The notes under the pieces were generated by a model, which was not told the origin of the DNA, searched no databases, and saw only the letters and a list, made by a program, of their open reading frames with translations. A stretch of 64,000 bases of DNA from a virus: IMG/VR virus record IMGVR_UViG_3300045988_176633; one strand, written 5' to 3'. How positions within the stretch are numbered: the first letter of the stretch is position 1; each line of letters starts with the position of its first letter. Both the position numbers and the translations under genes were made by a program. Shown one piece after another: positions 153-59,902 of the stretch.

Positions 153-752
153 TTATTCAGTGACTTCTTTCTGTTCCACATCAAAGTACTTTGAGATAAC
201 CTTGTCAACAACAGAAAAATAAGTACCAACTTTTTTCGCTACTTGATAACAAGACTCATTACTTGTCAACAATTCATCATAAGCCTTGCTAGATTTATCA
301 CCAAGTTTCTCCGGCTTTTCGCCTTTAGGCTTGTAAGTGAAGATTGTTTTTACACGAGGCTGTTTCTCTTTCTTCTGAGCTTTTTTAGCTTCACGTTCAG
401 CCTTTTTCTTAGCCTTTTCTTCTTCTTTTGCTTTCTTAGCGGCTTCTTTTTCAACACGCTTTTCTGCAGCTAACTCTTTTTTAGTCTTCTTCTTTTCACC
501 CGTTGGTTTTAGATCTGCTGCTTCTTCTGCGCTAATCTCTTCGACTTCACCAGCTTCTTCTTTTTCAGCGACAATAGCCTTTTCTTCTTCTTTTGCTTCT
601 TCAGCAGCTACTTCGACAACAGTACTTTCTCCTTCTTTCTTTTCAGATTCCATCTTGTCGATCATTTCCACTAACTCTTGTTTGGAATATTTTCCATAAT
701 CTTGGATTCCTAAACTCTCAGCTTTTCTACGCAATTCTAATAAAGATGCCAT
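153..752 (-). CDS. K/E-rich protein with N-terminal Rho_N/SAP-like HeH motif and C-terminal HTH-like segment
   Basis: LLELRRKAESLGIQDYGKYSKQELVEMI fits the Rho_N/SAP helix-extended-helix pattern. Long Lys/Glu linker. The C-terminal CYQVAKKVGTYFSVVDKVISKYF resembles the C-terminus of 766..1161. Confidence 0.55.
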   Translation of the reverse strand: MASLLELRRKAESLGIQDYGKYSKQELVEMIDKMESEKKEGESTVVEVAAEEAKEEEKAIVAEKEEAGEVEEISAEEAADLKPTGEKKKTKKELAAEKRVEKEAAKKAKEEEKAKKKAEREAKKAQKKEKQPRVKTIFTYKPKGEKPEKLGDKSSKAYDELLTSNESCYQVAKKVGTYFSVVDKVISKYFDVEQKEVTE

Positions 753-1259: not shown

Positions 1260-1841
1260 TTAAGACTTTTTAAGTTTACAATCTTTCATAAGGATTTTCT
1301 TAATGAACTTAACTCTGTCAGTAACAGAGCAATTAGGAATGATTGTGTAATCAACAAGACTGTGATAGAGGATATTTTGTATTTCAAGATCCCAGTGTTT
1401 TCTACGTTCTTCATCAAAGAGCCTTTCTCCATCATCGACAGAATCCCAGTAAATTGGGAAGTAAAATATCTTACCTATTCTATCAATATTTTGAGCCAAT
1501 ATCCTTCTCTCACGATTCAATTCAGTCTTTACATTGATGTTCTGATCAAAAGTTCTTGTCATTGTAAAGACATCTATAATAGATCGATCAGATAAACATT
1601 TTGACATATCTAAGACTTTCACGTATTCGTCGAAAATCAATCCTTGATTTTTAATTGATTGAAAATTTCGATCGACACTTATCTTATCTTCCCGTATCAA
1701 TTTACGTGAAATAGATTCTTGAATACTCCATCCTTCGAAAATAGGGTCTTGTTTGAGTACATCAAACACACTTGTTTTCCCTACACAACAAGACCCTAAA
1801 AGAGTTACTTTATCTATTGTCTCCAGAACCATGGATAACAT
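1260..1841 (-). CDS. P-loop NTPase, AAA_28/NadR-type nucleoside or nucleotide kinase-like
   Basis: Walker-A-like GSCCVGKTS near the N-terminus. C-terminal FYFPIYWDSVDDGERLFDEERR pattern is typical of NadR-type kinases. Start is uncertain: it overlaps the upstream stop by 32 nt, and an alternative ATG lies at 1832. Confidence 0.5.
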   Translation of the reverse strand: MLSMVLETIDKVTLLGSCCVGKTSVFDVLKQDPIFEGWSIQESISRKLIREDKISVDRNFQSIKNQGLIFDEYVKVLDMSKCLSDRSIIDVFTMTRTFDQNINVKTELNRERRILAQNIDRIGKIFYFPIYWDSVDDGERLFDEERRKHWDLEIQNILYHSLVDYTIIPNCSVTDRVKFIKKILMKDCKLKKS

Positions 1842-2346
1842 TTCTTTGTTTACGAGAAGCTAACTTCTCAATGTTTTGTTGACCTTGTTGATTCATCGTT
1901 AAATCAAATACTTGATCGTTTATATCAACCATTATTTGCATAACCTCATTCCATGCACTTTGAATTTTCTCTTTTCTCTCTTCAGAAAGGGAAATCTCTT
2001 GATCTTCTTTCCAATCGTCCCTCAAATATTTTTTAATCTGTTCTGCAATCTTTCCTACTGAAGACGGCAAATCAAAAGGACCAACTTCTTTATCACTAGG
2101 CTTAGGCCAATCAGTAATTTCTTTTAAACTAAATTCAATACGAATAGCAGCTAAATACCACAGAATATCTTGAAACTCAGCTACAGTCGATTGATCATCT
2201 GCTTCTTGTTTTAACTTCTCATAGAATTCACCTAATTCTCCACACAAACCCAATGTAACATAAGGTAAAGCTACCTTATCAGAATAACACTTAGTCGTGA
2301 TAGCAAGTGCTTCATAAGAAGCATAATTAATTACTTTACTTTCCAT
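1810..2346 (-). CDS. MazG-like nucleoside triphosphate pyrophosphohydrolase
   Basis: LGLCGELGEFYEKLKQ and DILWYLAAIRIEF fit the all-helical MazG-type metal-binding signature. 178 aa. Confidence 0.6.
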   Translation of the reverse strand: MESKVINYASYEALAITTKCYSDKVALPYVTLGLCGELGEFYEKLKQEADDQSTVAEFQDILWYLAAIRIEFSLKEITDWPKPSDKEVGPFDLPSSVGKIAEQIKKYLRDDWKEDQEISLSEERKEKIQSAWNEVMQIMVDINDQVFDLTMNQQGQQNIEKLASRKQRNVIHGSGDNR

Positions 2347-2351
2347 ATGTT

Positions 2352-3149
2352 TTAAAACTTATTTTGAATTTGATTCATTTCATTATTTCCCTCACAAGAC
2401 TTGGTTGCAACCAATTTACAAAAATTAATAAATTCTTCTTGTGTCAATGTTGATTTCATAATATTTATACTTTTATGAACCCATTGAACGTTTCCTTCTA
2501 CATATCCTTTAAAAGAGTCGATTCTATCTAACGAAATAGTTGTCTCTAAACGACCTCTCTTGGAACCCAAACCATAATTCGAAACACATAAATCTATTCC
2601 CGATAAAGCACATTTCATATCTTGTTTCTCAAGTAGATCAGCTAAATATTCATCAGAAACAGACCATTCTAAATTTCTGGCTTCTGCTCCTTCTCGAGCT
2701 CTTCTAATAACTGAAGCATTCAAACATCCAATTTTCCGACTTCCTCTTCCTATTCTACAATCTTTACAACAAGTGCTTCGTTTGTTAGTTAAGAAAGTTA
2801 TTCTAACGTAACTCTCTTCTCCACAGTCACACTTAACTCTATAAGACCTTTCTTTATCAGAAGAAAGAAATTTGAAATCATTTACATCAACAATAGTCCA
2901 ATGTCCAAATCTCATACCATTTTCAACTTTTGTCCAATGTTTCGGTTTTTGCTTTCTTTCTGCGACAACAGATCCATACCTACACTTTAGACATTGTTTA
3001 GATGTACCTGTTTTCAGATCATAAAATCGCTTCGTCACAATTTCACCACATTCACACTGGACAACAATTCTACCACCTTTAATTACTTCTATTATGGTCC
3101 ACTTGCCATACTTATCTCCAACTTTAGGATAAATTGTTTCTAATTTCAT
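2352..3149 (-). CDS. HNH homing endonuclease with duplicated N-terminal zinc-ribbon modules
   Basis: C-terminal LSLDRIDSFKGYVEGNVQWVHKSINIMK is an HNH(N) core. There are two G(K/H)WTI(I/V)...C(E/D)CG...C..C modules. The gene is inserted between folE and the MazG-like gene. Confidence 0.7.
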   Translation of the reverse strand: MKLETIYPKVGDKYGKWTIIEVIKGGRIVVQCECGEIVTKRFYDLKTGTSKQCLKCRYGSVVAERKQKPKHWTKVENGMRFGHWTIVDVNDFKFLSSDKERSYRVKCDCGEESYVRITFLTNKRSTCCKDCRIGRGSRKIGCLNASVIRRAREGAEARNLEWSVSDEYLADLLEKQDMKCALSGIDLCVSNYGLGSKRGRLETTISLDRIDSFKGYVEGNVQWVHKSINIMKSTLTQEEFINFCKLVATKSCEGNNEMNQIQNKF

Positions 3150-3766
3150 TTGAGATTAACAATCATGTCAAAAAATTCTTTTCTAGATCCTATTTCATTA
3201 GTCTTAAAATAACCACTACAATAAGACGTCTGCATCGTTGAATCTTGCTCAATCCCACGTAATTTAACACACATATGATCTGCTTTAATAAAGACGATCA
3301 CACCCTGATTGTCGGGAATTATATCGTTAATATAGTCGTGAATTTGTTTCGTTAAGAATTCTTGAGTCTGAGGTCTCTTCGAAAGAAAATCCACAATTCG
3401 ATTCAACTTAGATAAACCAATGATATTCCCATCTTTTTTAGGAATATAAGCAACATGACAAACTCCAACTATACTTGCAAAATGATGTGCACACAAACTG
3501 TGTACCGGAATATTTCCTTGGAACACAATACCGTCATATTGGGATTCATTCGGGAAAACCGTGATCTTTGGTGGTTCTGAGTAAGCACCTGATGTCACTT
3601 CGTTTACATACATCTTTGCCACACGATAAGGAGTCTTCTTCATATTAGGATCATTTTCCCAATCATAACCTAAGGCCCTTAGAAAATTACCGAAGGCAAA
3701 CTCGGCATTTTCTAACATTTGTTTTCTTTGACTTTCAGTCAAAACTTTATTTTCTCCTGCTTTCAT
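3146..3766 (-). CDS. folE: GTP cyclohydrolase I
   Basis: LCAHHFASIVGVCHVAYIPKKDGNIIGLSKLNRIVDFLSKRPQTQE matches the C(E/A)HH...H(I/V)AYIP...GLSK core of FolE. Confidence 0.9.
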   Translation of the reverse strand: MKAGENKVLTESQRKQMLENAEFAFGNFLRALGYDWENDPNMKKTPYRVAKMYVNEVTSGAYSEPPKITVFPNESQYDGIVFQGNIPVHSLCAHHFASIVGVCHVAYIPKKDGNIIGLSKLNRIVDFLSKRPQTQEFLTKQIHDYINDIIPDNQGVIVFIKADHMCVKLRGIEQDSTMQTSYCSGYFKTNEIGSRKEFFDMIVNLK

Positions 3767-3769
3767 ATT

Positions 3770-4573
3770 TTACGCTTCTCTTTTATTACCATATGCTAAT
3801 ATCTGTAGACGATCTGAATAGTTAAAACCACGTTTTAAACATTCTTCCATCAACCAAACTCTTTTCTCAGAAATCTGTTCAGGTGTTACACCTTCTGGCA
3901 TTAGATAGACTTGTGATCGAATAAACATAGCAAGCTTATCTTCGTCTTGATTATATAGTTCATCTCGAATCTTTAAAAGTTGTCCTTCTATCTCCTCTAA
4001 ATCCTTTTCAGATCCAACAACATATTTTAATTGAAAATCTCTAGCATAAATAATCCAATCCACAATATTAGAGATGTTCTCTCTTTCTTTGATATGCTTC
4101 TTTTCAATTTCTTTAGAATATTTCATTCCAAATTTTTCCATTTTCTCTTGAGTTGGAATACTTGATTCTAACTTAGGAGAGATAGAAGCTAAATCAATAG
4201 ATTTCATCACTGAAGGAGGTACTTTAATTGATCCATTTGTCTCAATAGTGATTGAAATAGGATAATCGAAATCATCACTATTACTTGCAAATTCTTCTAC
4301 AAGGTCTAAATGAAGACAAGGCTCACCACCTGTAATCATCATGTGATTTATACCTAAATTATCTTCGCAGAACTCTTGTACATCTTGTAATGTATACTTT
4401 CCTTTTTCAGGATTAAAACTAGAATAAGGTGTGTCACAATAAGAATCTTTGAAAGCACAACGAAGATTACAACCACTTAAACGTACCAAAATATGTGGTA
4501 CACCAGCTAACTTACCTTCTCCTTGTAGACAAGTGTGTAAGTCAATGATCGGAAGAATTTTATTTTTGTCCAT
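3770..4573 (-). CDS. queE: 7-carboxy-7-deazaguanine synthase (radical SAM)
   Basis: Cluster region LSGCNLRCAFKDSYCDTPY and ITGGEPCLH motif. Flanked by queD and folE. Confidence 0.8.
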   Translation of the reverse strand: MDKNKILPIIDLHTCLQGEGKLAGVPHILVRLSGCNLRCAFKDSYCDTPYSSFNPEKGKYTLQDVQEFCEDNLGINHMMITGGEPCLHLDLVEEFASNSDDFDYPISITIETNGSIKVPPSVMKSIDLASISPKLESSIPTQEKMEKFGMKYSKEIEKKHIKERENISNIVDWIIYARDFQLKYVVGSEKDLEEIEGQLLKIRDELYNQDEDKLAMFIRSQVYLMPEGVTPEQISEKRVWLMEECLKRGFNYSDRLQILAYGNKREA

Positions 4574-5177
4574 TTTTAACTTGAAGATTTACTGAAGGAT
4601 TTTTAAAGAAAAAAGAATCTGATTCGTATTTGTTATTGAATATGAATGAATAAAGATCGTTGTCCCAATCAGACCAAACACCTTTTGAAACAGAAAAATT
4701 CAAAAGATTTGCAATCTCAGAGTTATTAACTAAATCTTCTTCAAAACAAGTAGCAGATCCTGTAGTCGTCTCGTGATACTTAACAGAATAAACTTTAATT
4801 CTCGATTCTCCATTTTTAAATTCCGTGTGATCTATAATCTCTTGAATCCAATAGAAGAAAAACATAGATAAACATTCTGCACTAGGATTGACTCCTAACT
4901 CAATCCAACGAGCGTTTTCACTTTTAATAAAATCACGATAATCTTTTTTATCCTTATTCCAAAGAACGTGACAATGATCAAAAGAATCGATGAATTGTTT
5001 AATACTACCTTTCATCAGACCGAAATCCATCAACATACCACCATTATCCAATTTATCGGCTGTAATTGACACTTCGAGTTTGAAACTATGTCCGTGTATC
5101 GAATGACTACATCTAATAGATGTACAATTTCGAACTATGTGAGACATCTCACCTGTGAAAATTTTTGTAACAATCAT
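4560..5177 (-). CDS. queD: 6-carboxy-5,6,7,8-tetrahydropterin synthase
   Basis: CSHSIHGHSFKLEV carries the Cx3HGH motif of QueD/PTPS. 205 aa. Confidence 0.8.
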   Translation of the reverse strand: MIVTKIFTGEMSHIVRNCTSIRCSHSIHGHSFKLEVSITADKLDNGGMLMDFGLMKGSIKQFIDSFDHCHVLWNKDKKDYRDFIKSENARWIELGVNPSAECLSMFFFYWIQEIIDHTEFKNGESRIKVYSVKYHETTTGSATCFEEDLVNNSEIANLLNFSVSKGVWSDWDNDLYSFIFNNKYESDSFFFKNPSVNLQVKNGQK

Positions 5178-5209: not shown

Positions 5210-5701
5210 CTACTTATCTACCATTTCTTTAGCGAAGATGGCCACTAGTTTTAAGTTAGTTACGTACACATATGGTAGTGTTATGTCTTCCCCTTTAACA
5301 TTTAAAATGATTGAATCCTCATCTGGTATATTTGTCTTTACTTTGTAAACCTCTTTCTTATAAGAGACCATATTCCCAGCATGAAATAGATAGAATTTAT
5401 CCCAATAAGATATTGAAATATTTTTTTCTTGATTTGTTCCATATTGGAAGTTCGGCATCCCATATTCTTGGGAAAAACATTGTACAAAAAATTGATGGAA
5501 GGCTTTTTTCGAATCAAAGATTGAGATCATATGAAACTTTTTTGCCAAGTTTATGATCTTTTCTTTTTTCTTTTCAGCGATATCTCGATTCATTTTAATG
5601 AATTCAGGACGCTCATAAATTAATTCTCGTGTTTTAAACGAAAAATACTCCAATTGAAGGACTTGTAAAAATTCTGTTATGCTTAAATCTCTACTTTTCA
5701 T
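5210..5701 (-). CDS. hypothetical protein
   Basis: 163-aa ORF co-oriented with its neighbours. No recognisable motif. Confidence 0.6.
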   Translation of the reverse strand: MKSRDLSITEFLQVLQLEYFSFKTRELIYERPEFIKMNRDIAEKKKEKIINLAKKFHMISIFDSKKAFHQFFVQCFSQEYGMPNFQYGTNQEKNISISYWDKFYLFHAGNMVSYKKEVYKVKTNIPDEDSIILNVKGEDITLPYVYVTNLKLVAIFAKEMVDK

Positions 5702-7123: not shown

Positions 7124-8574
7124 ATCACAGTGACTTCTTGAGTTTCTTTCTTCTTACCCTTACGTAGTTTATCCTTTCTCTCAGGTTTATCGGCAGTCGT
7201 TGATATAACTTCGGAACTATCATTGTATAAAGCCATAGTACGCTTACGATTATAGAACCTACCACGACCATAATCAGTAGCGATAGAAAAGATTTCTTGA
7301 CTACTCTTGTAATCACGAAGTTTGTCAACAAAGATCCTACATTTCTCATCTTTCTTCTCTTGCATTGTAATATTTCCAGTAAATACAAATGAATAAGGCT
7401 TCACAAGAGTTCTATCACCTTCAGTATTAGAACGGTCTATATGTTTCATTTCATTATTCCAGACATCCATAGGTACATCACCTGTTTGTGTAGCTGTTAT
7501 ACCAACCATTTTAAATTCGACACAAATATCTTTAAATAATTGTGAACATTTCTGTAATCTAAACTTAGTAAATTCTGGATCATTGTCTATCTTCTTGTTT
7601 ACACCAGTCATTAGAAGATCTAACGAATCGACGATCAATAGTTGTGGAAAATGACCATATACTTTTTGATATTCGATACATAGATTTCGAATATCAACCA
7701 TTGATGCTTGACCGAATTTTTCAAATCCATAGATATCAATATCTTGACCAAAAGATTTCATATCTCTTAAAGTTTTCATGATCTGTTTTTCATCTTCTTG
7801 TTTTAAAAGACCTTTTTTGATGTCTATGTAACTTTGATTTGTCCACATTTGATCGTATTTGTCTGTACAAGCATCAACACCACCTTCTAATTGTATGTGT
7901 AGCACTGAAATGCTTTCAAGTGCTGCTGCATATCCATGCCATTTTAATACGGTTGATTTTCCAACACCAGATCTCATAATCCACAATACCGTATCTCCTG
8001 GATCTGCGCCACCATAACTAATATCATCAAGACGATCAATTCCCAAAGAAACTTTATTTTGGACTTTAGCGAGCTTATTTTCATCATATCTCTTTTTCAT
8101 CCTTTCTTGAAATCCTTCAAATACTCGAATAAATTTTCCACCAGTCTTTCGAAGTGATATTTCTAATATTCTTTTACTTTCTTCTGCATTGACTTTAATC
8201 GCTTCATCTCTTTTACCTTCTTCGTATAAATCATGAACCTTTTTACTAAGAAGTTCAAACTCAGTCTCGCGAATAAAAGATTCTAGTTGATCAATAATTA
8301 ATTCTTTGTCAACTAAACGAGCCTTTTTAATTTCTTTGATTGATTCTTGAACAGAATCATTATCAGCATATTTCTGAGCAATAACTCCCAAAGAAGGTGT
8401 TACTTCTTTCCCAATGAATTGTTCGACAGCTTCTTTCAATAGAAACTTATAACCGACCCACTCTTTAGGAATTAATTGATAAGTCATATGACCCGAAACC
8501 ATTCTCATGATATTCCCATCAATGAACATCAATTTGAATAACTCTGCCATAAAATTTTCATTCAACTTTCTCAT
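7120..8574 (-). CDS. replicative DNA helicase (DnaB/RecA-fold family)
   Basis: Walker A RSGVGKST and Walker B LLIVDSLDLL. 484 aa. Adjacent to the primase. Confidence 0.7.
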   Translation of the reverse strand: MRKLNENFMAELFKLMFIDGNIMRMVSGHMTYQLIPKEWVGYKFLLKEAVEQFIGKEVTPSLGVIAQKYADNDSVQESIKEIKKARLVDKELIIDQLESFIRETEFELLSKKVHDLYEEGKRDEAIKVNAEESKRILEISLRKTGGKFIRVFEGFQERMKKRYDENKLAKVQNKVSLGIDRLDDISYGGADPGDTVLWIMRSGVGKSTVLKWHGYAAALESISVLHIQLEGGVDACTDKYDQMWTNQSYIDIKKGLLKQEDEKQIMKTLRDMKSFGQDIDIYGFEKFGQASMVDIRNLCIEYQKVYGHFPQLLIVDSLDLLMTGVNKKIDNDPEFTKFRLQKCSQLFKDICVEFKMVGITATQTGDVPMDVWNNEMKHIDRSNTEGDRTLVKPYSFVFTGNITMQEKKDEKCRIFVDKLRDYKSSQEIFSIATDYGRGRFYNRKRTMALYNDSSEVISTTADKPERKDKLRKGKKKETQEVTVI

Positions 8575-11366
8575 ATCGTGTTTATTTGAACCGTTATATG
8601 ACTATCTTCACGAAGACTATTAATCGCTATGAATGAGCTCATACAAATATCGTCATGAGCACCAACAGCTTCTAATTTACCTCTGTCACTTCTAAAAGTA
8701 ATAGAAGAGAATTCACCAAAAACAATCTTCACCATATCTCTTGTTGGTCCTACTGCATATGGTATTTTTATTTGACCTCTTTCAAACATTGCCGAAAGAC
8801 TTGGTAAACCAGTATGAAGATCCTTCTTATTGCCTTCTGTTGTTGTAAAGGTCTCAATGTTTTTCAAACCTCTTTCCCTTGCTAGTCCACTTAAAATACT
8901 TTGAAAACCATTAGCTTCACATACAATTTTATTGGGTTTGAATAAAGTATTAAATAATACAATTTTATCAACTTGCTCATTGTGACTCATTCCTTTCTGT
9001 CTATGGATCGCTATCAAATAATAATTATCCATAAAATCGATCCCCCATACTGTGTAAACTGTATAGTCTGCACCGATATTACCAGAAACTGCAAAATCAC
9101 AACCAACAACAACCCTTTGTAATTTAAATGGAAAGTAATCAATGGTATCTGCAAAAGAAATATTTTCCATCCCAACTGTCGATCTCATTAAAAACTCATA
9201 AGGGAAAATGGTACTACTATCTGCAATAGGAACTACTAAGTATTCACGACTAAATACCATTGTACCTAACTCATCTTTTTTCTGAATAATATCATCAAAA
9301 GTATATCTATCTGGAGCAAGAGGACGTCCATCTGGAAATATTATCGGATACTCAAAGACTGCAAAACGTTTATCAGCTTTAATAATATTATAAAGTTCAT
9401 TAGGAGCAGTTGAATATGGTGTACCAGAAATCAAGAAATACCCATAAGGTTCAACAATGGGACTGATTGTCCCTCGAAAAGTTTCTTTTAATTTTTCTCT
9501 CTGTTCATCACTATAAATAGAACTTTCATCTGGCATATCATCAACTATAGCTGCACCAACATGTAAACCACGAATCATAGAATCTTTACCACGAACATGT
9601 AATATTCCTCCGTTTTCAGTTTCAATCATCGTCTCTCCTAATTTCGCTTTTTTATTAGGATTAAGTTTGTTACTTAAAATTGGATTTGTCTCTATTTCTT
9701 CAATGATTTTCCCAACGTGAACCTTAGCAAGAGTTATCATATTAGTAATCAGAGCGGTTTCCTTTCGATTCTTATTATCAATCGTATCACCAGCATAAAA
9801 AATTGGTTTTGTATAACTATATAATCTCCATAATGGGAATGCGTAAGCAAACTCATAACTATTATGAACAACAGTCCCATCTGATAATAAAAATTTATGA
9901 TCTCCATCTAAAGAAAAACCATAATAATCACCTTTGCCAACTGGAGTTATTGATAAACTACTTCTACTAAAATCTTGAATTTTCTCAATCTTTAGACATT
10001 TCTTTCTTTCGATCTTAGTAGGAATCGTGTCGATATCTCCAGAAATATTACATTGATATTGGATATTACCTTTTAAATCATATTTTTTACCATTTGTTTT
10101 TAATGTTGTACTAACAACTCTTTTTCTAACTGAAACACATCTAAATCCTAAAGATAAAGCTAATTGTCTAACATCATTTATTAATCGCTCATTTGAATTC
10201 GCAAAAATAAATGACTTTCCTCCATTTTTCTTAGTCTTCTCTAAAGAACCGTCTGTATCGATAAGACCTGCTAACAATTGAAGTCTCTGTTGTCGAGAAC
10301 TTCTCATATAAATATCTGGAATATGTTTATTTCTAAGAACATTTAACTTTTCGAGATTTTCATTAAGAAAATTTCTTTTTGATCCAGGAATATTTACAAT
10401 ACATGAATATAATTCTTTTTGATGAAAAGAACAAAATCTTCTTTTGTGAATCCCTCCCAATCTATCAGCATACTGATCCAAATAAAGACAAATCTCTGGA
10501 TCAATTGTAGTTATAACTTGATTATGAGAATTTCCATCACCTAACCATAATCCTAAAAAATAAGGTTCTATAGAAAGAGATTTTTCAGGAAGATCCCAAC
10601 CCTTAACTCTATATCCATAGATCTTTTTATATCTATATAACCATCTTTGAGGAATTTTTTCAACTGGAATCTCCTCTTTACAAATTTCTCTTCCTATATA
10701 TTTTTTACCTTTCGAACCATGATCAATATATTTTTCTTTATCCCATTGAATACAAACCAAATGACCCTCATTTACACAATAATCCTTTGCATAAGTCTGA
10801 TGAATTTTATACATAGGTGCTTTACCTCTATGCAATTGAAGAACTTTCCTTGGTGTTGAATCTGGTCCCATAACTAAATCACCGACTTTGACGTCTTGAA
10901 CTTTCTTTAGAGATCCATCATACATAACCACTAACTCATTGAGACTCATACATTTCCCAGAACCGCGACTACAAAGATAACTAGACCAAGGAAATAATTG
11001 AGTTAAATTCCCCCATTCTAAATTTCTCCATCCCATCATAAAATTAGATAAGACAGTCGCACAAAAATAATTGAAAGACAATATTCTCAATCTCTCATCC
11101 ATAGCTGCAGCTAGATTGTCAATGTACGAAAGATTTTCAGTATCTAACGATCTACCGAAATTCATTGCCATATCAGTTTGATTAACAATCTCTGTTAGAA
11201 GTTTATCTATGTCCTCAGAATAACCTTCTAACAATTGATTGATCGAATGTGCAGGCAATCTTTCAATTATATCGTTTGCCGCAGAATATAACCTCCTGTT
11301 TTGTAAGAGTGTAAATTTGCTAGCTGGTTTATCTTGTTCAGTCCAATCTTGTTGTTTGATTATCAT
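8571..11366 (-). CDS. terL: terminase large subunit interrupted by an intein
   Basis: Walker A is reconstituted as SRGSGK|S across the intein. Walker-B-like AAIVDDMPDE. RNaseH-like nuclease start VVGCDFAVSGNIGADYTVYTVWG. The extein totals 567 aa. Confidence 0.85.
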   Translation of the reverse strand: MIIKQQDWTEQDKPASKFTLLQNRRLYSAANDIIERLPAHSINQLLEGYSEDIDKLLTEIVNQTDMAMNFGRSLDTENLSYIDNLAAAMDERLRILSFNYFCATVLSNFMMGWRNLEWGNLTQLFPWSSYLCSRGSGKCMSLNELVVMYDGSLKKVQDVKVGDLVMGPDSTPRKVLQLHRGKAPMYKIHQTYAKDYCVNEGHLVCIQWDKEKYIDHGSKGKKYIGREICKEEIPVEKIPQRWLYRYKKIYGYRVKGWDLPEKSLSIEPYFLGLWLGDGNSHNQVITTIDPEICLYLDQYADRLGGIHKRRFCSFHQKELYSCIVNIPGSKRNFLNENLEKLNVLRNKHIPDIYMRSSRQQRLQLLAGLIDTDGSLEKTKKNGGKSFIFANSNERLINDVRQLALSLGFRCVSVRKRVVSTTLKTNGKKYDLKGNIQYQCNISGDIDTIPTKIERKKCLKIEKIQDFSRSSLSITPVGKGDYYGFSLDGDHKFLLSDGTVVHNSYEFAYAFPLWRLYSYTKPIFYAGDTIDNKNRKETALITNMITLAKVHVGKIIEEIETNPILSNKLNPNKKAKLGETMIETENGGILHVRGKDSMIRGLHVGAAIVDDMPDESSIYSDEQREKLKETFRGTISPIVEPYGYFLISGTPYSTAPNELYNIIKADKRFAVFEYPIIFPDGRPLAPDRYTFDDIIQKKDELGTMVFSREYLVVPIADSSTIFPYEFLMRSTVGMENISFADTIDYFPFKLQRVVVGCDFAVSGNIGADYTVYTVWGIDFMDNYYLIAIHRQKGMSHNEQVDKIVLFNTLFKPNKIVCEANGFQSILSGLARERGLKNIETFTTTEGNKKDLHTGLPSLSAMFERGQIKIPYAVGPTRDMVKIVFGEFSSITFRSDRGKLEAVGAHDDICMSSFIAINSLREDSHITVQINTI
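9861..10952 (-). mobile_element. intein with LAGLIDADG homing endonuclease (TerL residues C139-N502)
   Basis: Starts with Cys (TGT at 10952..10950) directly after GSGK. Hint N-block is CMSLNELVVMYDGSLKKVQDVKVGDLVMG. LAGLIDADG blocks are YFLGLWLGDGN and LLAGLIDTDGS. Ends VVHN (AAT at 9863..9861) with Ser at +1. Confidence 0.85.
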
Positions 11367-12028
11367 AGTTGAAATTTTTCTCTAAATCTAGTGAATCCTG
11401 TTTCTTGCGGAGCATTTGTAATAGATGAGGAAGTATTTGTCCCTCTCAAGGATTTAACATATTCAATTAATAAGTAAGCATTTGCTTTAGTATCATCCAA
11501 AGCTCTATGTGCATTTACAAGATCAATGTTAGACAGTCCACAACAAGTATGTAACTTATAATCTTGTTGTTCTAATGCAGCCATATGAGCTATCTGCATA
11601 GTATCGAGTTGATACTTAACATATTTATCAAGATCGTCACCTAAATATTCGAACATGTTTTTAACAAAAGGAACGTCAAAACCAACGATATTATGCCCGG
11701 CAAGAGTACAGAGTTGTCTGGGATTTTTGTATTTTTTAAACAACTCTAACCATTTCTTATAAACTTCCTTTAATGAGACTCCTTTTGATTCTTGTATTTC
11801 TCTGGTAATACCGTGAACATCTGTGGCTTGTTGTTCATATGTTAAACCTTCCTTGTAATCAGGTTCCAAAATCAGAGAACATTCTTCACATACTTCTAAT
11901 TTCTCCATATCAATAACTACCATAGCGAATTCTACGATTGGTACATCGTAAAATGCTTTCTTGTCTTTAGAACACAACCCTCCGGTTTCGAGGTCAAAAA
12001 CAATAATATATTTACAACTCGTTTTCAT
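11363..12028 (-). CDS. DnaQ-like DEDDh 3'-5' exonuclease
   Basis: ExoI FDLETGGL, ExoII GHNIVGFDVPF, ExoIII HRALDDTKA. Confidence 0.8.
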   Translation of the reverse strand: MKTSCKYIIVFDLETGGLCSKDKKAFYDVPIVEFAMVVIDMEKLEVCEECSLILEPDYKEGLTYEQQATDVHGITREIQESKGVSLKEVYKKWLELFKKYKNPRQLCTLAGHNIVGFDVPFVKNMFEYLGDDLDKYVKYQLDTMQIAHMAALEQQDYKLHTCCGLSNIDLVNAHRALDDTKANAYLLIEYVKSLRGTNTSSSITNAPQETGFTRFREKFQL

Positions 12029-12239
12029 TATTTTGAATGTTATAAAGTTTTACACTACAATTTTGCTGTTCTACTTCAACAATTTTATTACCACCTAAAT
12101 ATTCTGGTAACTTACCTCGATTGATATAGCCTAATACATCTCTAGGATTGAATCTTTCGTTTGAATCTTTCTTTGAGAAATTATCATTTAAAAATTTTGT
12201 TATGCCTGTTAAATTGGCATTTTTTAATAAATACTTCAT
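12012..12239 (-). CDS. hypothetical small protein
   Basis: 75-aa ORF that overlaps both neighbours in operon style. Confidence 0.5.
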   Translation of the reverse strand: MKYLLKNANLTGITKFLNDNFSKKDSNERFNPRDVLGYINRGKLPEYLGGNKIVEVEQQNCSVKLYNIQNNENEL

Positions 12240-23900: not shown

Positions 23901-26900
23901 ACTGTCTTATTTGCATTAGCAATAGTATCGTCTCCTTCACCTGTTGAATAATCTGAGAAAGACGCTCCCCAATGAAACGAACCGTTTATCGCTTGAACCT
24001 GAGGTGTACGTCCTGCGTCATTTGTCGTTAATTCAATCGACGATTGACCAGCAGGAAGAACAATAGCTTCACCACTTACAACAACTTTGGCTCCTGATAA
24101 GATCGTCCCTTGTTCTCCTGTAACTGTAAAATCTAATAAATAAATCCTATCAATTTGAACATTGATCGTATCAATGCCTGTAACAGTTATTTGAGTTGTC
24201 GTACTGATGTAATTCTGTTTTGTGATAGAAACTTCAAAATCACCTTTTGGAAGTTGTAAAACTGCTTCACCACTTGCATTTGTTAAAACTGATTGACCCT
24301 TTGCCGATACAACAGCATCTTGAACTAAAGCAGGTGTTGGAGTTGTTTTATCTCTTACCACAAATGTGATCGGATAAGTAACTGGATCTAAAGAAACTTG
24401 TACACTTGTATCTGAATTACTTACCGTTACAGAACCTGTCTTTGTTTGAAATTCTGTTGCAGATATCTCATATTGATGTATACCATTTACCAAACCAATC
24501 ACCGCAATACCACCAGCATTAGTCTCTACCGTTATTCCTTCAACTGTTATCGAAGCACCTTCAACTGGAACACCTTCACTCGTAACAGAAAAGATAACGT
24601 TCCAAGGTCTCAATACCATTGGTACATCTACAGATACATTGGAATTATTAACAACTAAAGTTCTATCAACATCTACATAACCAATTTTAGTCACTGTATA
24701 GTCATAAGAACCATTGATTAACGTCAACTTCACTAAACCATCTTGACCTGTTGAATATTGTTGACCATTTATATTGATAACTGCTCCTTGAATAGGAGTG
24801 TTTCCGTCTTTGACAGAGAAAGTTATCGACCAGGGATAATCAACCATTTTAGCGACAACGCTAACATCGTTATCTTTCACCAGAACAGATCCTGAAAAGT
24901 CATAATAACCCAATTTTTCAACCTTATAAGGATAGGTCCCATTTTGCAAACCAATTTGCACTTTACCACCTTCATCGGTTACAAGTACTTGATCTGAAAT
25001 AGATACTAAAGCATCTTGAATGGGGTTGTTCTTAGAATCGACAACAGTTATGAAAACATCGTAATGTCTGAAATCTAACTGATAGACGAAATCAGCGTCT
25101 GATGTATCAATGTTAAAATTAATCGTTAAATCGTCATAAATTGGATTTGTGATTGTACCAGTATATTCACCATTTGTCAATCTAAAAACAACTAATCCAT
25201 TGCTATTGGTACGAGCAACTAATCCATTGTTCAACGTTATTAACGCATCTGGAATCACTTTACCAGAAACAAGTTCAATGACCTTAATAGTAACATTATA
25301 CTTGTAAAGATCCATTTCGATAGTTCTTGTTTCATCTTGATTTAAAACCACAATAAGAGCTTGTGTATCTACATATCCTGGTTTACTAAATTTAGCAAGA
25401 TAACTTCCATTGATCAAACTAACTTGAACCTTACCATCGTCATCTGTCACATAACTATCACTACCTATCTCAACTAAAACACCTGAAATAAAATTCTCAG
25501 AATTGAGACCTTTTACGAAAATTGTTTGTACCCATTTATGATAATATAAAGTAACTGGTACATAAACATCTGAATTATCAACAACGACAGAACTTCCTTC
25601 ATTAGAATCAAAACCTAATTTTTCAACTGTATAAGGATAGGTCCCATTTTTCACCAACACTGTTGCTTCACCGTTGACATTAGTTGTTAAAGTTTGATTA
25701 GCAATAGAAATGGTTGCGTCTACAACTGGTACACCAAATTGATCTTCAACCATGAAACTAACCTGAAATGGAGCTAATTCTAATACAATACCAATGTAAA
25801 CCGGCGCATTCAATACAACAAATTGTCCTTGTTGTTGTTTATACTTTTCTTTACTAGCAGTATAAATGTAATTACCATTTACCAAAGAAATAGTCGCTAA
25901 ACCATCTTCATCTATGATAACAGATCCACTACCAACAGAGATTCTCACACCCGACAACGGATTACCATCTTCATCTGTGATAGTAAAATAAACTGGTTGT
26001 CTAAGTGCTAATGCACTATCATTTAAACCTTGAAATAAATCCTCTTGTCCTGCAGGATAAAACATAGGAGAGAGTTCACTTCCAGCATCGTATAAAACAA
26101 TACCTTCAAGATTTCTCATTACGAATCCTTTAATTCTAGGAAGTTGATTAGGTGGAACTTCTTGGTCGTAATATGGAAAGAAATATTCGTCAGGAACATA
26201 TTTGACACCTTCAGCATTCTTCACGATACCAAGTAGATCATCCCATTGAACGATCTTACCTGCTTCCCAGAATCGAAAGTCGAGATATTTTGTCAAAGCT
26301 ACCTGAATATTTTTTCTTACTGTAGCTACATCGTAAGAAGGATCAATTTCTATTCGAAAATCCATCCCACGCTCACTACCAATAAAAAACCATTCAGCAT
26401 TCTTTAATTGAATCCCAACAACGTTTCCTTCGAGGTTTAATTCAAAAAGTCCAAAATAACTTTTAGATTTCTCTAATAAAGTCTCTAATTCATCCTGTGT
26501 GAATAAAATTCCATTTTGACTTACTAGATAAAGATAAAAGATTCCATCTTCTCCCAACCCAACATTTAATACTTTCAAAATACGATCATCGATATTTTGG
26601 AATATTTGAGTATAATATTCCAACGTTCCTTTAGAAAGTGTGTTGAGGTTAGTCATGATCCTAATACGAAAAGTCTCATCATCTTCACTATCTCTACCAC
26701 CTGTAGCCATGTATTCATTAGTGCATTCAATATGACCACTAGGAGCAGGAGTGACGTTGATAATACTATTTGCATCGACATTTGTAACCAATCCTTGGTT
26801 AACACTTCTGACACTTACATATGCATAACCAGATCTACCAACTGTAACAGATTCATTTACAGAGAAACGAATACCGTTTTGATTTACAAAGAAATTAGTT

Positions 26901-27214
26901 TCATTGTAAATAGTTCCCGGGTCTGCATAAACTCTCACATAAGTAGATGAACCAAGAGCACCTTTTCTTGGACTAACCCCAAAAAGTGCCGCTGATTTAT
27001 CGAGATATTCTCCTGTAGCTGTTTCTGGGAATATCTTTGCTTCTGTGATAGCAATATCTTTGATCGCTTTTTGTGCGACTTTTGCAGTACCAAAAGCCAC
27101 AGCATTTAAGACTGAACCATCAGCTACATTCGTAACTTTATTGGTCTTGTCTAAAAACAGCTCGATCCAAAGATTTTTAAGCGTCGAAATTGTATTACTA
27201 ACTTGCGTTATCAT
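20921..27214 (-). CDS. giant baseplate-J-like / tail fibre fusion protein with about 17 CarboxypepD_reg-like repeats and a Gly-rich C-terminal domain
   Basis: 2097-aa ORF. The N-terminal ~400 aa resemble the baseplate J/gp47 family (VADGSVLNAVAFGTAKVAQKA...FPETATGEYLDKSAALFGVSPRKG). A repeat array follows. The C-terminal 324 aa have poly-Gly runs (AAGGGGGGGGNNIAAGGGGGGGG). Confidence 0.8.
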   Translation of the reverse strand: MITQVSNTISTLKNLWIELFLDKTNKVTNVADGSVLNAVAFGTAKVAQKAIKDIAITEAKIFPETATGEYLDKSAALFGVSPRKGALGSSTYVRVYADPGTIYNETNFFVNQNGIRFSVNESVTVGRSGYAYVSVRSVNQGLVTNVDANSIINVTPAPSGHIECTNEYMATGGRDSEDDETFRIRIMTNLNTLSKGTLEYYTQIFQNIDDRILKVLNVGLGEDGIFYLYLVSQNGILFTQDELETLLEKSKSYFGLFELNLEGNVVGIQLKNAEWFFIGSERGMDFRIEIDPSYDVATVRKNIQVALTKYLDFRFWEAGKIVQWDDLLGIVKNAEGVKYVPDEYFFPYYDQEVPPNQLPRIKGFVMRNLEGIVLYDAGSELSPMFYPAGQEDLFQGLNDSALALRQPVYFTITDEDGNPLSGVRISVGSGSVIIDEDGLATISLVNGNYIYTASKEKYKQQQGQFVVLNAPVYIGIVLELAPFQVSFMVEDQFGVPVVDATISIANQTLTTNVNGEATVLVKNGTYPYTVEKLGFDSNEGSSVVVDNSDVYVPVTLYYHKWVQTIFVKGLNSENFISGVLVEIGSDSYVTDDDGKVQVSLINGSYLAKFSKPGYVDTQALIVVLNQDETRTIEMDLYKYNVTIKVIELVSGKVIPDALITLNNGLVARTNSNGLVVFRLTNGEYTGTITNPIYDDLTINFNIDTSDADFVYQLDFRHYDVFITVVDSKNNPIQDALVSISDQVLVTDEGGKVQIGLQNGTYPYKVEKLGYYDFSGSVLVKDNDVSVVAKMVDYPWSITFSVKDGNTPIQGAVININGQQYSTGQDGLVKLTLINGSYDYTVTKIGYVDVDRTLVVNNSNVSVDVPMVLRPWNVIFSVTSEGVPVEGASITVEGITVETNAGGIAVIGLVNGIHQYEISATEFQTKTGSVTVSNSDTSVQVSLDPVTYPITFVVRDKTTPTPALVQDAVVSAKGQSVLTNASGEAVLQLPKGDFEVSITKQNYISTTTQITVTGIDTINVQIDRIYLLDFTVTGEQGTILSGAKVVVSGEAIVLPAGQSSIELTTNDAGRTPQVQAINGSFHWGASFSDYSTGEGDDTIANANKTVAISLKRGKRAVFTVTDGTDPLQGANILIDNVTNYQTGVDGQVNVSLSAGNHTYKVSLVSYQTITGTVNVKEDETSYVNLTMVHGGLLTLNVKNGVANLSGATVVIKNSSGTTVKSGTTDSNGNISVDVPNGNYTYTTDASGYKQQPGSTTVSSADKTVQVQMQNYKYWGVTFNVKYKTTNLNGASVSISNVKTIGGTSTANGTTNSSGQWILAASAKNDATLNGAVSWTASLSGYRSASGSFNIVNANQTINVTLEKYSTVTLTFVNYAGTALSGISVTMNNQTVTTNASGQAIFSNVIDGTYNWSSAAKSPYQAKSGSVTVNGTNVNQQITLTSQVTVTFIAKDDAGTALSGATVKVAGTSKGTTNSSGQLAVTMQSQSAAYACTVELSGYQTWSGNVTVGLSNQTVNASLQYLVTFTATVKENTTSGANVGSATVKLVNSSLGTFTGTTDSSGVATIPNVKPGSYTYTISKSGYKDTTGSVTVSRSSHSQSATYALLRYYTFVVNVKRAGVNRNGVTVKLDGTSKGTTNSSGNITMSNVLYGSHTIAIDAGTYWKAFSQSYTISSTSTINIALTALYTAQFTISDANGPISGAKITLTGIATGTLTTNSSGAASKAGIAAGTLSYSVSAAGYVTKTGTVTMSGSNDSINTSITLQKAAKLVQITTPLGAEINQQIEPGYTNVDFLIAAGGGGGGGGNNIAAGGGGGGGGIVYIKDHTTSISNLKLVVGNAGAGGAGGSTTTQGYTGNDGYESIVTIEDVVHQAYSGRWGYGASQLNNESRGDGGDGGSVNPSNNNKGCGGGGGGGGSYQESSTPDWGGGGGGGARNNRVNAGSIQGAIGGKGLAHTTGGGKGGVSEGGNLNRGNGTGGDGGSGYTNRSTIDGGNYGTGGSGFGTSTYTVIPDILLPSKGDGGTGGSGTSGSNSSGGGGGGGSFGKGGNGGNGSSTTSDGGNGGLGEYGAGGGGGGRVYNSSYKGGNGGNGGQGIIELYYK
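21766..21839 (-). repeat. near-tandem 35-nt direct duplication (39-nt period) inside the Gly-run coding region
   Basis: TTCCACCTCCTCCGCCTCCACCTCCTGCTGCAATA occurs at 21766..21800 and again at 21805..21839. It encodes IAAGGGGGGGG twice. Confidence 0.85.
21896..21949. repeat. inverted repeat, right arm (IR-R), 54 bp perfect
   Basis: Exact reverse complement of 20002..20055. Codon-aligned in the 2097-aa ORF: 27214-21949 = 5265 = 3 x 1755. Confidence 0.95.
21950..25996 (-). repeat. array of about 17 CarboxypepD_reg-like domain repeats (protein level, approximate bounds)
   Basis: Repeats resemble FSVKDGNTPIQGAVININGQQYSTGQDGLVKLTLINGSYDYTVTKIGY. They run from about aa 407 to aa 1755 and end exactly at IR-R. 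Confidence 0.7.
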
Positions 27215-28007
27215 ATATTAAAAATGATTTAATCCCTTCAATTCGCTCAAGCCAATTTTCGGGAAGTTTATCTCGTTTTTCTAAATTATCTTTGGCCCAT
27301 AAAGGTTGTAAATTTCTGAAATTGAAACAAATACGTTGTTGATTAGGATCTGAAAGATCAAAAGAGGCACAAGGAACAATATGATCAACGTGCCATTCAC
27401 CGTAATTATCCCAACTCATTCCTTCAACAAACTGATTCTCAAGGTGTTTCTTGAGATCCTCAAGAGAGCAACCGATATATTTAATTGTGTGGTGTAATTT
27501 ACGATTTTCTTTTAAAACTCTATACAATCTATTTCGTAAATTTAACTTCAAAATAAAATTAATATCTCGTTCTCTTCTTTTTTCTTTTGAATATTGCAAA
27601 ACATATTTACTGATTTTCTCTTTATTCTTTCGCTGATATTCTTTGTGATATTCTTTTAAATACTCTTGATTTTTTAAATTCCAATTCTTTATTCGAATAA
27701 ACTGAGCCTCTCTGTTGTTTTTATAATATTCTTTGTGTTGTTTTCTTAATCTTTCTTTATTGTTTAAATAATAAAGATGCGACCTTTCTCTCTGTTTATC
27801 TTTATTATTTAAACGTCTCTCCTGTGATTTGACTATAATTTTAACTCTATTCTTCTGATAATAAGAATCACTACTTTCTTTATAACAATCCTTACAACGA
27901 AGACTCAAACCATCAGATTTACACTTACATTTATAAAAGTTATCGAGAGGGAGTTCTCGTTTACAACGAGAACAAACTTTTAGACCGGTTTCAAAATTCG
28001 CTTTCAT
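27198..28007 (-). CDS. HNH homing endonuclease (paralogue of 39755..40525)
   Basis: N-terminal MKANFETGLKVCSRCKRELPLDNF zinc ribbon. C-terminal WHVDHIVPC...NLQPLWAKDNLEKRDK is an H-N-N/H core. Inserted between baseplate genes. Confidence 0.7.
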   Translation of the reverse strand: MKANFETGLKVCSRCKRELPLDNFYKCKCKSDGLSLRCKDCYKESSDSYYQKNRVKIIVKSQERRLNNKDKQRERSHLYYLNNKERLRKQHKEYYKNNREAQFIRIKNWNLKNQEYLKEYHKEYQRKNKEKISKYVLQYSKEKRRERDINFILKLNLRNRLYRVLKENRKLHHTIKYIGCSLEDLKKHLENQFVEGMSWDNYGEWHVDHIVPCASFDLSDPNQQRICFNFRNLQPLWAKDNLEKRDKLPENWLERIEGIKSFLIYDNAS

Positions 28008-38987: not shown

Positions 38988-39758
38988 TCATATATTTTCT
39001 AAAAAGTTATCAATAGCTATTTGTGCTACACGACTTATATCAGCTCGTTCCAATGCTTTATCCATCAATTTTTTAGGTGGTATACCTCCGTTCCACCAAC
39101 TAGCTGGACTAGATTTATCACTAACACGTCTAAACGTAAAGTAACCACTCCTAACTTCTTTATCAGTAGACTGTATATTGACTTTTACCAATCCTTGATA
39201 TTTAGGAGATTTATGCATATACTCAGGTACAACTAAACCAGGTACGTTAATTTCTTTTCTGATCCCTGGTAGTTTGTGTTGTTCAGGTAAATCAGTTGTT
39301 TTTAAAGGTCTTGTTGATTGTTTGGCAATATTATAAATTTCTTTAGGCATGATAGAAGAGAAGATACCTGATTCAGCGACTGCTTCTGGTGTCGCATGTC
39401 TAAATGGTATGGTTAAATACCAACCTCCGTCTTTTTTCTCTTTGACTTTATCAGATCTCTGAAATCCTATTTTCTCATCAAAAGGACTGGCACCTTCTTC
39501 AATCATGATAGCAAGAGGACTTTCTCTTGCCATCAAACCAAAAACAACCTCCATACCAGAAGGTCGTTCCATGAACATTGCACGTTTATATTCAGATCGA
39601 GATTTTTTTAACTCTCGATTGACTAGATCCTCCCAACGAGTGGAATATTCTACTATAACTTTATCAATGATAGATGTCCCAAGAATCTCCGTTTGATTTG
39701 CTGTTAAAGAAAATTCTTCAACTAAATCACTTAAATCTATGTTTATAGGTAGGATCAT
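38988..39758 (-). CDS. hypothetical protein, head-tail joining region (by position)
   Basis: 256-aa ORF. Confidence 0.45.
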   Translation of the reverse strand: MILPINIDLSDLVEEFSLTANQTEILGTSIIDKVIVEYSTRWEDLVNRELKKSRSEYKRAMFMERPSGMEVVFGLMARESPLAIMIEEGASPFDEKIGFQRSDKVKEKKDGGWYLTIPFRHATPEAVAESGIFSSIMPKEIYNIAKQSTRPLKTTDLPEQHKLPGIRKEINVPGLVVPEYMHKSPKYQGLVKVNIQSTDKEVRSGYFTFRRVSDKSSPASWWNGGIPPKKLMDKALERADISRVAQIAIDNFLENI

Positions 39759-40525
39759 ATGATTCTTCTTAAAAATTCAACTAATTCTTCTACATTTTCG
39801 GGAACATTATCTCGCTTAATAAATCTATTCTCTTCTTTTAAAAGAGGCTGTAAATTTCTGAAATTGAAACAGATACGTTGATTTTCCTCTTTCGTCAAAT
39901 CAAAATAGGAGCAGGGAATGATGTGATCAACATCCCAAAAGGAACCGTAATTATCCCATGTCATCCCTTCAACGAACTGATTCTCAAGGTGTTTCCTAAG
40001 ATCTTCAAGAGAGCAGCCTAGAAGATCAAGAGTTTTTAATTTTTTTGAACTATTCTTTAATGCATATCGCAATCTTCCTCTAGCTAAAGTTATAATTTTA
40101 TAATTTATATCCTCTTTATATTTACAACGTCGATAATCTTTCAATTTAGAAGATCTCCATTTTTTACAAGATCTTTTTCTAACTTCTCGTCCTTTTTCTG
40201 TTTTTAAATATCTACTATCCCAAATTCTATGATACTCCTTTTCTCTCAAAATCTGAGATTCTGTTTTTATATGAGTTTGACGGTATATCTTTTGTCGTTC
40301 TTTAACTTTCTCTTTGTGATTTTCACAATATTTTTTAGAACTTCTCTTTAAAGCTTCTTTTCCAGCTTCAGTTTGGCGATATTTTTTACTAGTATTAGAA
40401 ACACAGTCTCTACAACGGCAATTTAATTTATCTATTTGTCTGCTATCTCGAGAAAAATTATCGAGAGAGAGTTCTCGTTTGCAACGAGAACAAACTTTCA
40501 GACCGGTTTCAAAATTCGCTTTCAC
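39755..40525 (-). CDS. HNH homing endonuclease (paralogue of 27198..28007)
   Basis: GTG start. The first 67 nt differ from the first 67 nt of 27198..28007 at only 4 positions. C-terminal WDVDHIIPC...NLQPLLKEENRFIKRD is the HNH core. Confidence 0.7.
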   Translation of the reverse strand: MKANFETGLKVCSRCKRELSLDNFSRDSRQIDKLNCRCRDCVSNTSKKYRQTEAGKEALKRSSKKYCENHKEKVKERQKIYRQTHIKTESQILREKEYHRIWDSRYLKTEKGREVRKRSCKKWRSSKLKDYRRCKYKEDINYKIITLARGRLRYALKNSSKKLKTLDLLGCSLEDLRKHLENQFVEGMTWDNYGSFWDVDHIIPCSYFDLTKEENQRICFNFRNLQPLLKEENRFIKRDNVPENVEELVEFLRRII

Positions 40526-53823: not shown

Positions 53824-54408
53824 TTAAGCCATTTCTGCTGTAACCTCAAATTTCTGAATACCACTTTCAGCAGTAACTACAATATTAAGATCTTCTTTTG
53901 CATCTAAACCAAGATCTTCCAATGAGAATGTTAAAATAGATTCCTTTTTATTTAATGAAGCAGCTAAATCTTTACGATCACCACGAATCACTCCATAACG
54001 ACCAACTGATTCATTCAAATTAACTGAATTAGGGAAGTGAATGTTTACATCCTTAACAGTAGGAAGTGTTGTCGTGATTTTCAAAACACATTCGTCATCA
54101 CCATTCCACTCAGCATTCACTGCAACTAGTTCATTTAAACCTTGAGGATTGATCTCCAAAGTCAAACCATTATTTTCTGCAAAAGCTACCAACTCTTCGT
54201 GCATAACAGCGTGACCTACATGCCAATTAAAACCAAGTGCAAGAAGTGCATCACTACCAGCTTGTTCATCTTCATTAACAGCCAAACCACCTGCAGGTAC
54301 GATACCACGCATTTCTGTGATAAACACTCGTTTTTGATCACAACTACCGTCTGTAACGACAGTTGCATCAATTTTCTTATCTGTATCTATAAATCTATAA
54401 AGTCTCAT
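53824..54408 (-). CDS. hypothetical protein
   Basis: 194-aa ORF, 2 nt downstream of the repeat-protein start. Confidence 0.55.
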   Translation of the reverse strand: MRLYRFIDTDKKIDATVVTDGSCDQKRVFITEMRGIVPAGGLAVNEDEQAGSDALLALGFNWHVGHAVMHEELVAFAENNGLTLEINPQGLNELVAVNAEWNGDDECVLKITTTLPTVKDVNIHFPNSVNLNESVGRYGVIRGDRKDLAASLNKKESILTFSLEDLGLDAKEDLNIVVTAESGIQKFEVTAEMA

Positions 54409-54422
54409 TTTTCAATTATGTT

Positions 54423-59898: not shown

Positions 59899-59902
59899 AA
59901 CC

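Follow-up and report, generated by a model that had tools for sequence, protein, structure and literature searches.

Positions 2352-5177 of the 64,000-nt stretch of viral DNA analyzed here (IMG/VR record IMGVR_UViG_3300045988_176633, hereafter the window) are probably the precursor cassette of a phiST-type 7-deazaguanine DNA modification system that is divided between two modules; the phage itself has a genome of ~101-104 kb. Systems of this kind have been known since 2023. In Cellulophaga phage phiST (NC_020842) all deoxyguanosine (dG), 100% of it, is replaced by 2'-deoxy-7-deazaguanosine (dDG) (Cui et al. 2023, PMC10516641). That phage lacks QueC; its DpdL, a T-fold protein that resembles QueD but has LxxxHRHxF where QueD has CxxxHGH, is the predicted decarboxylase of 7-carboxy-7-deazaguanine (CDG), while its DpdA3, a very divergent tRNA-guanine transglycosylase (TGT) homolog found by HHpred only, is the predicted inserting enzyme (PMC10516641). 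What is added here is the linkage of the two modules, the closure of a genome without QueC, and an all-or-none distribution of the system against 30 sister genomes, together with the displacement of FolE by FolE2, the backbone status of the adjoining MazG-like and kinase genes, and the mobility of an HNH gene that interrupts the cluster.

Precursor genes in the window

This phage DNA has ~32% G+C and nearly all of its genes on the minus strand, including the three precursor genes: queD (4560-5177, 205 aa), for a 6-carboxy-5,6,7,8-tetrahydropterin (CPH4) synthase of a long subtype; queE (3770-4573, 267 aa), for a putative radical-SAM (S-adenosylmethionine) CDG synthase and overlapping queD by 14 nt; and folE (3146-3766, 206 aa), for a GTP cyclohydrolase I of type IA. 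The QueD protein matches PF01242 at E 4e-21 (75.7 bits against a cut-off of 22.4), as well as TIGR03367 and the QueD-like phrog_2389. A phmmer search aligns it over its full length with the solved 200-aa CPH4 synthase of PDB entry 7V0F (E 1.9e-52), and the two have in common the motif NCTS.RC.SIHGHS, in which the classical C-x3-HGH is replaced by C-x4-HGH (C-SHSI-HGH). Because the full-length match to 7V0F includes this unusual motif, the window protein appears to be a bona fide QueD of the long subtype.

QueE contains the radical SAM domain PF04055, its best five NCBIfam matches are all QueE models, and its sole structural relatives in the PDB are the QueE structures 6NHL, 4NJG and 5TGS. Three cluster cysteines can be read from its sequence (C35-x3-C39-x6-C46, that is Cx3Cx6C), and it is 36% identical to phiST QueE over the full length. 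FolE matches PF01227 (E 7.7e-50, 169 bits) and, with 166.1 bits against a cut-off of 162, NF006826; its sequence contains the zinc motifs SLCAHH and HMCVKLRG, and its identity to phiST FolE is 47%. The best annotated relatives of QueE and FolE, as well as of the MazG-like protein encoded further downstream, are those of the Cellulophaga phage phiST group. A megablast search of GenBank phages with the cluster gave zero matches.

An initial annotation of the window had recognized, of the pathway, queD, queE and folE only, with neither QueC nor a TGT/DpdA-like gene in the 64 kb, and this is borne out by further searches, which extend the absence to DpdL. The phiST DpdA3 and DpdL proteins find nothing in the window by tblastn, and an hmmsearch of its six frames with DpdA3 and DpdL profiles reaches no E lower than 0.69, whereas the positive control has 5e-118; relatives that jointly cover the window are likewise without a match when their six frames are searched with the Pfam models for TGT, DUF6610 and QueC.

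A second module outside the window

The missing enzymes are found in near-identical relatives that reach beyond the window. One IMG/VR contig, G001 (80.6 kb), matches window 5571-64000 with 99% identity and continues for 23 kb past the right end of the window, and a second, G004 (58 kb), is 90-98% identical to window 1-46016 and continues for 16 kb past the left end. G004 ends in an overlap with the start of G001, where the two are 97% identical, and the composite of G001, window and G004 closes a circle of ~101 kb, close to the 103 kb that CheckV implies. In G001 an open reading frame (ORF) at 10321-11283 (320 aa) encodes, as one fusion, an N-terminal DpdL and a C-terminal P-loop kinase domain. 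The DpdL domain, with the motif LEYPHRHMF, is 45% identical to phiST DpdL (E 5e-31), and the P-loop domain is 30% identical to phiST CGPG_00066 (E 3e-16). The ORF at 11285-12061 (258 aa) is DpdA3, 39% identical to phiST DpdA3 over the full length (E 8e-60) and matching phrog_19058 at E 2e-8.

A structure model of this DpdA3, with a predicted local distance difference test (pLDDT) score of 94.7, has exclusively tRNA-guanine transglycosylases as its best 43 PDB matches, at E down to 6.7e-7. Two aspartates, D51 (in D51-S-G) and D205 (in T-D205-S-C), are invariant in 35 homologs, and we take these to be the positions of the TGT catalytic aspartates (TDSGG and FDCV motifs). The protein is a minimal TIM barrel that has neither the TGT zinc subdomain nor its CxCxxC motif. 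The Pfam TGT model PF01702 produces no candidate on DpdA3 even at E<=10, and neither PF01702 nor DUF6610 (PF20314, DpdA4) finds anything in any relative; DpdA3 was detected only via phrog_19058 and by BLAST against phiST.

The two modules are physically linked in the lineage of the window, because G006, a single contig of 65 kb, carries both. With 95-98% identity it covers window 12597-4562 and 3791-1; its DpdL::kinase and DpdA3 genes (the latter at 55753-56529) lie 29.5 kb downstream of the cassette on the same strand. Searches for QueC (PF06508) yield no candidate in G001, G004 and G006, which jointly hold the whole ~101 kb composite, with the control positive in 14 of 14 genomes. The initial annotation had suggested that a transglycosylase might be encoded in another part of the genome or that the pathway might yield a CDG-derived base, and had proposed searching the rest of the genome for dpdA/tgt, queC and decarboxylase genes. 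In the relatives this search recovers DpdA3, ~25-30 kb downstream in G001 and G006, and DpdL, and no QueC, in support of both suggestions. With QueC absent and a DpdL-type decarboxylase present, the predicted product is therefore 7-deazaguanine (decarboxylated CDG), as measured in phiST.

Comparison with known systems

The gene set is that of phiST, where the cluster CGPG_00071 to 00065 reads QueD-QueE-FolE-MazG-DpdL-P-loop (CGPG_00066)-DpdA3; the order QueD-QueE-FolE-MazG is the same in both phages and QueC is absent from both. The DpdL motif is LEYPHRHMF here and LSLNHRHLF in phiST, and phiST DpdA3 likewise escapes PF01702 and is seen by HHpred only. There are nonetheless several differences. 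The phiST genes form one contiguous cluster, whereas here they form two modules separated by 25-31 kb; the P-loop protein is encoded separately from DpdL there and fused to it in one 320-aa protein here; the window QueD belongs to the 7V0F-like 205-aa subtype and has no BLAST similarity to phiST QueD; and an HNH gene is inserted here. The phiST group is marine, while the source here is apparently the human gut, as judged from one fecal record in the sister clade (MT835760). Cui et al. noted that CGPG_00066 had no homologs in other deazaguanine phages (PMC10516641). In the literature collection searched, DpdA3 in the present sense was named only by those authors, the other matches listed being unrelated yeast strain names.

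A further relative of the second module is present in Chryseobacterium phage MA9V-3 (PV245944, 103 kb), which encodes DpdL, the P-loop protein and DpdA3 in the same order, with a DpdA3 that is 43% identical to that of G001, with queE and folE nearby and with a class II ribonucleotide reductase (RNR) upstream. It differs from the window lineage in that everything lies in one contiguous region with thyA2 and recA interleaved, MazG is replaced by a dUTPase-like gene, and the P-loop protein is a separate gene. Its record does not annotate DpdL, the P-loop protein and DpdA3 as a deazaguanine system, and a 293-aa product annotated as 'hypothetical protein' (L022:8461-9342) is an in-frame HNH::DpdL fusion, the HNH part of which is 33% identical to the window HNH protein.

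Other phages with a DpdA3-subfamily enzyme, including immuto, resemble the present system in that DpdA3 is tied to complete replacement of G (PMC10516641), but they have QueC or QueC* (immuto also QueF and DpdN), carry other bases and lack DpdL. In Enterobacteria phages 9g and CAjan the pathway likewise begins with FolE, QueD and QueE, and the anti-restriction logic is the same (PMC6884629, PMC10516641). Their pathways run through QueC or Gat-QueC and their DpdA1 is detected by the Pfam TGT model, whereas here QueC is absent and PF01702 detects nothing; moreover, their replacement is partial (25-32%) and motif-dependent.

Distribution of the system and its backbone neighbors

Downstream of the precursor genes, again on the minus strand, are a MazG-like gene (1810-2346, 178 aa), predicted to encode an all-alpha NTP pyrophosphohydrolase, and a P-loop nucleoside/nucleotide kinase-like gene of the AAA_28 family (1260-1841, 193 aa). 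The six genes from queD to the kinase gene, all of them recognized in this order by the initial annotation, are confirmed as minus-strand ORFs and look co-transcribed, because neighbors are separated by gaps of <=5 nt or overlap. A scan for promoters and terminators yielded no useful signal, promoter-like sites being fewer than in shuffled sequence. The MazG-like protein matches phrog_229 (E 7e-16), is 33-35% identical to phiST MazG (CGPG_00068) and contains the motif E-x-x-E ... E-x-x-D. The AAA_28 protein matches PF13521 (E 3e-8) and phrog_2107, 'thymidylate kinase' (E 2e-15), and its AlphaFold2 (AF2) model (pLDDT 86.6) has deoxyadenosine kinase, NadR ribosylnicotinamide kinase and thymidylate kinase as fold neighbors, the best PDB folds reaching template modeling (TM) scores of 0.6-0.7; the modeled fold thus points to a small-molecule nucleoside or nucleotide kinase. 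PDB sequence searches with these two proteins gave no match.

A homolog of the kinase (46% identity) occurs in a human-fecal phage fragment, MT835760, in the order terminase-helicase-primase-162 aa-MazG-kinase-PolIII alpha and without que genes. A search with that homolog in turn found 59 IMG/VR contigs, and many of these are complete genomes (100-108 kb) that have terminal repeats. DpdA3, FolE, FolE2 and PTPS/QueD are all absent from 30 of these sister genomes with a completeness of 92% or more, and in the same searches G001, G004 and G006 register as positive controls wherever they carry the query. When the whole proteome is compared with those of G013 and G028, two sisters with complete genomes, synteny is genome-wide at 35-75% amino-acid identity, interrupted by two main lineage-specific blocks relevant here, along with smaller differences such as the Rho_N genes described below.

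The first block, queD-queE-folE-HNH, sits with clean junctions exactly between the MazG-like gene and a conserved 163-aa backbone gene (5210-5701, minus strand) that has no Pfam or PHROG match and forms the upstream edge of the cassette. Its homolog in G013 and G028 (38-39% identity) is followed directly by MazG, at 24 bp in G013, and because the 163-aa gene abuts MazG in these sisters, window 2352-5177 can be delimited as a lineage-specific block. The second block, (class II RNR)-91 aa-DpdL::kinase-DpdA3, stands just before a DUF4494 gene. In G001 the RNR gene of this block, which is of the B12 type and contains an intein with an HNH domain, lies off-window at L006:6392-9703, directly upstream of DpdL::kinase-DpdA3, and it is absent from the sister clade. 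Near the corresponding site of G013, after its DUF4494 gene, there are ORFs (59417-60090) resembling an apparently split C5 cytosine methyltransferase, which may be alternative anti-restriction cargo at the same hot spot.

The position of the MazG-like and kinase-like genes next to the cassette, as first annotated, is correct, but they are not members of it. MazG homologs (37-40% identity) occupy the same place in G013 and G028, both of which lack deazaguanine genes, and kinase homologs at 45% identity occur in sisters lacking the system; as all 30 sisters keep both genes without any que or dpd gene, we rejected the two as cassette members. They are older backbone genes of the family, beside which the cassette landed, and their adjacency is no evidence that they serve the cassette. 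They may help with the nucleotide pool in a way that is not specific to this system.

Two further clades carry parts or all of the system. The third clade, represented by a 69.3 kb scaffold (ENA ERZ16268151 scaffold_203) with a kinase at 41% and a DpdA3 at 55% identity, has QueD-QueE-FolE2 (PF02649, GCYH-IB) and a 275-aa gene at the same site before MazG (L097:3379-7554), and on the same contig, ~31 kb from the cassette, a 317-aa ORF, an HU gene and DpdA3; the 317-aa ORF is likely the DpdL::kinase fusion. FolE has here been swapped for the non-orthologous FolE2, a replacement that shows selection on the pathway and not on a particular gene. In the fourth clade (P0030) the fusion (41% identical) and DpdA3 are located before DUF4494, and there is no RNR. 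From these comparisons we conclude that the two modules function as a single system that is acquired or lost as a unit, and that the split two-module architecture is old and stable.

Among the smaller differences are two adjacent genes with N-terminal Rho_N (SAP-like) domains and Lys/Glu-rich tails (window 153-752 and 766-1161), situated between the kinase gene and dnaE; tblastn finds no match to them in G013 or G028, and clade 3 has Rho_N genes at the same place. The sisters do conserve, at 54-55%, a 713-aa head-module protein (window 46830-48971) that contains a clear NUDIX box (GGHVDAGEDFRTAARRELFEETGI). Outside the window, G004 encodes a 200-aa ORF upstream of an NAD-dependent ligase (54408-55010; L010:6409-7011) with a weak Pfam match to Nmad5, 'nucleotide modification associated domain 5', at E 1.4e-4, which is under the cut-off.

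Proposed pathway and alternatives

By family membership, FolE would convert GTP to dihydroneopterin triphosphate (H2NTP), QueD would convert H2NTP to CPH4, and QueE would convert CPH4 to CDG. QueC is absent, and therefore the pathway cannot continue to preQ0. As predicted by Cui et al. for phiST, DpdL would instead decarboxylate CDG to 7-deazaguanine, and DpdA3 would exchange guanine in the phage DNA for this base, both steps being proposed from their predictions together with the composition of phiST DNA. The virion dG would then be largely or wholly dDG and the DNA restriction-resistant, by analogy with what was measured for phiST.

Several points weigh against this scheme. QueE scores far under the NCBIfam equivalog cut-offs (65 bits against 260), and the genes beyond the window are known from relatives with 94-99% identity, such as G001 and G006, and not from the phage of the window itself. 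The decarboxylase activity of DpdL and the substrate of DpdA3 are predictions, and Cui et al. failed to reconstitute dDG in E. coli (PMC10516641). Finally, the kinase domain that is fused to DpdL has no role in a pure base exchange. It is possible, if rather unlikely, that dDG formation depends on this fused P-loop domain as a required third enzyme, whose substrate would be an intermediate at the nucleoside or nucleotide level. If so, complete replacement of G of the DpdA3 type would proceed at least partly via the nucleotide pool and not by post-replicative exchange alone, and the failure of DpdL and DpdA3 alone to give dDG in E. coli would be explained.

Taken further, the same domain could point to a route that is pre-replicative, in which 7-deazaguanine would be made into a deoxynucleotide, phosphorylated by phage kinases (the DpdL-fused domain and perhaps the AAA_28 kinase) and incorporated by PolIII alpha, with MazG removing dGTP and DpdA3 acting on nucleotides instead of DNA. 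A profile of the P-loop domain weakly matches deoxynucleoside and adenylate kinases in the PDB; the domain is fused to DpdL in two clades whose fusions are only 41% identical, and it is a constant, separate neighbor of DpdL and DpdA3 in phiST and MA9V-3. A DpdA3 reduced to a 258-aa barrel without zinc subdomain is also compatible with such a route, as are the complete replacement in phiST and the ADG nucleoside in CP220-infected cells (PMC10516641). We nevertheless regard this route as decidedly unlikely. The MazG-like protein and AAA_28 kinase that it would employ are backbone in sisters that have no deazaguanine system, neither a phosphoribosyltransferase (PF00156) nor a nucleoside deoxyribosyltransferase (PF05014) was found in the composite genome, and all characterized TGT and DpdA enzymes act on polynucleotides. 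A class II RNR adjoins the module in three of four lineages, including clade 3 and MA9V-3, and would fit a nucleotide-level route; it is missing beside the module in the P0030 clade, which weakens the coupling of RNR to DpdL/DpdA3 that we had considered.

Very improbable, in our estimation, is a variant of the base exchange in which DpdA3 inserts CDG and the DNA carries its deoxynucleoside, dCDG, or some other CDG derivative, with DpdL acting on DNA or in some other way. The activity of DpdL is a prediction, and DpdL bears an extra kinase domain here; Cui et al. considered the DpdA3 substrate unpredictable and CDG a base that it may insert, and dCDG occurs naturally in STSV-2 (PMC10516641). 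Yet the LxxxHRHxF motif of DpdL is conserved between this lineage and phiST, and in phages phiST, phi19:2 and phi13:1, whose gene set is the same, dDG occurs alone, with dCDG absent (PMC10516641).

The window alone ends at CDG, its cassette is apart from any transglycosylase gene, and likely hosts normally have QueC, all of which would suit an auxiliary metabolic module that feeds CDG to host QueC, QueF and Tgt and boosts queuosine in tRNA, unrelated to phage DNA; this is the least probable explanation, given that the cassette and DpdL/DpdA3 co-vary all-or-none (both in the window lineage and clade 3, neither in the 30 sisters), that QueE, FolE and MazG have their nearest homologs in phiST with its DNA of 100% dDG, and that the FolE to FolE2 swap keeps the pathway at the same site.

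Mobile elements within the cassette

The HNH-type gene (2352-3149, minus strand, 265 aa) is wedged between folE and the MazG-like gene, as the initial annotation had described, and encodes a homing-endonuclease-like protein of the HNH/EndoVII superfamily. A Pfam search with it gave no match; its PHROG matches are to 'endonuclease' (E 8.5e-23), 'HNH endonuclease' (E 3.5e-16) and endonuclease VII (E 4.7e-16). Two loci with flanks 95-96% identical to the window, L004 and L005, are without the HNH-plus-mazG segment (window 3129-1875) and have in its stead a divergent mazG allele; the 3' half of folE is more divergent in them as well. The window HNH gene is also present in G006. Because it is present or absent at a fixed site among near-identical relatives, the gene is a mobile insertion of the homing-endonuclease type, with a putative nuclease as its product.

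In G006 a segment at 24940-26276 (L020:6941-8277), which replaces window 4562-3791, contains a further HNH gene, of 201 aa, that separates queD from queE. Its paralogs in the window are the genes at 27198-28007 and 39755-40525, and the QueE allele beside it is only 43% identical to that of the window. The queD-queE interval of G006 looks like an allele replacement driven by a homing endonuclease inside a biosynthetic operon, and the cassette as a whole is a hot spot of homing endonucleases, which drive an exchange of alleles there. Elsewhere in the window, the large terminase gene (8571-11366) contains a LAGLIDADG-type intein (LAGLIDTDGS) at about 9860-10946, which is missing in L004 and L005, where the alignment jumps from window 10953 to 9860.

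Implications

For annotation, it is important to note that a 'partial' que operon in a phage is not equivalent to a truncated pathway, because the enzymes that would complete it, DpdA3 and DpdL, escape Pfam. Similarly, MazG and kinase genes that adjoin que genes need not belong to the pathway. A phiST-type system, previously measured only in marine Cellulophaga phages, is here extended to a large family of ~100 kb phages apparently from the human gut. Sisters with and without the predicted modification share the same backbone in this family, and constitute a natural set for testing what the modification protects against.

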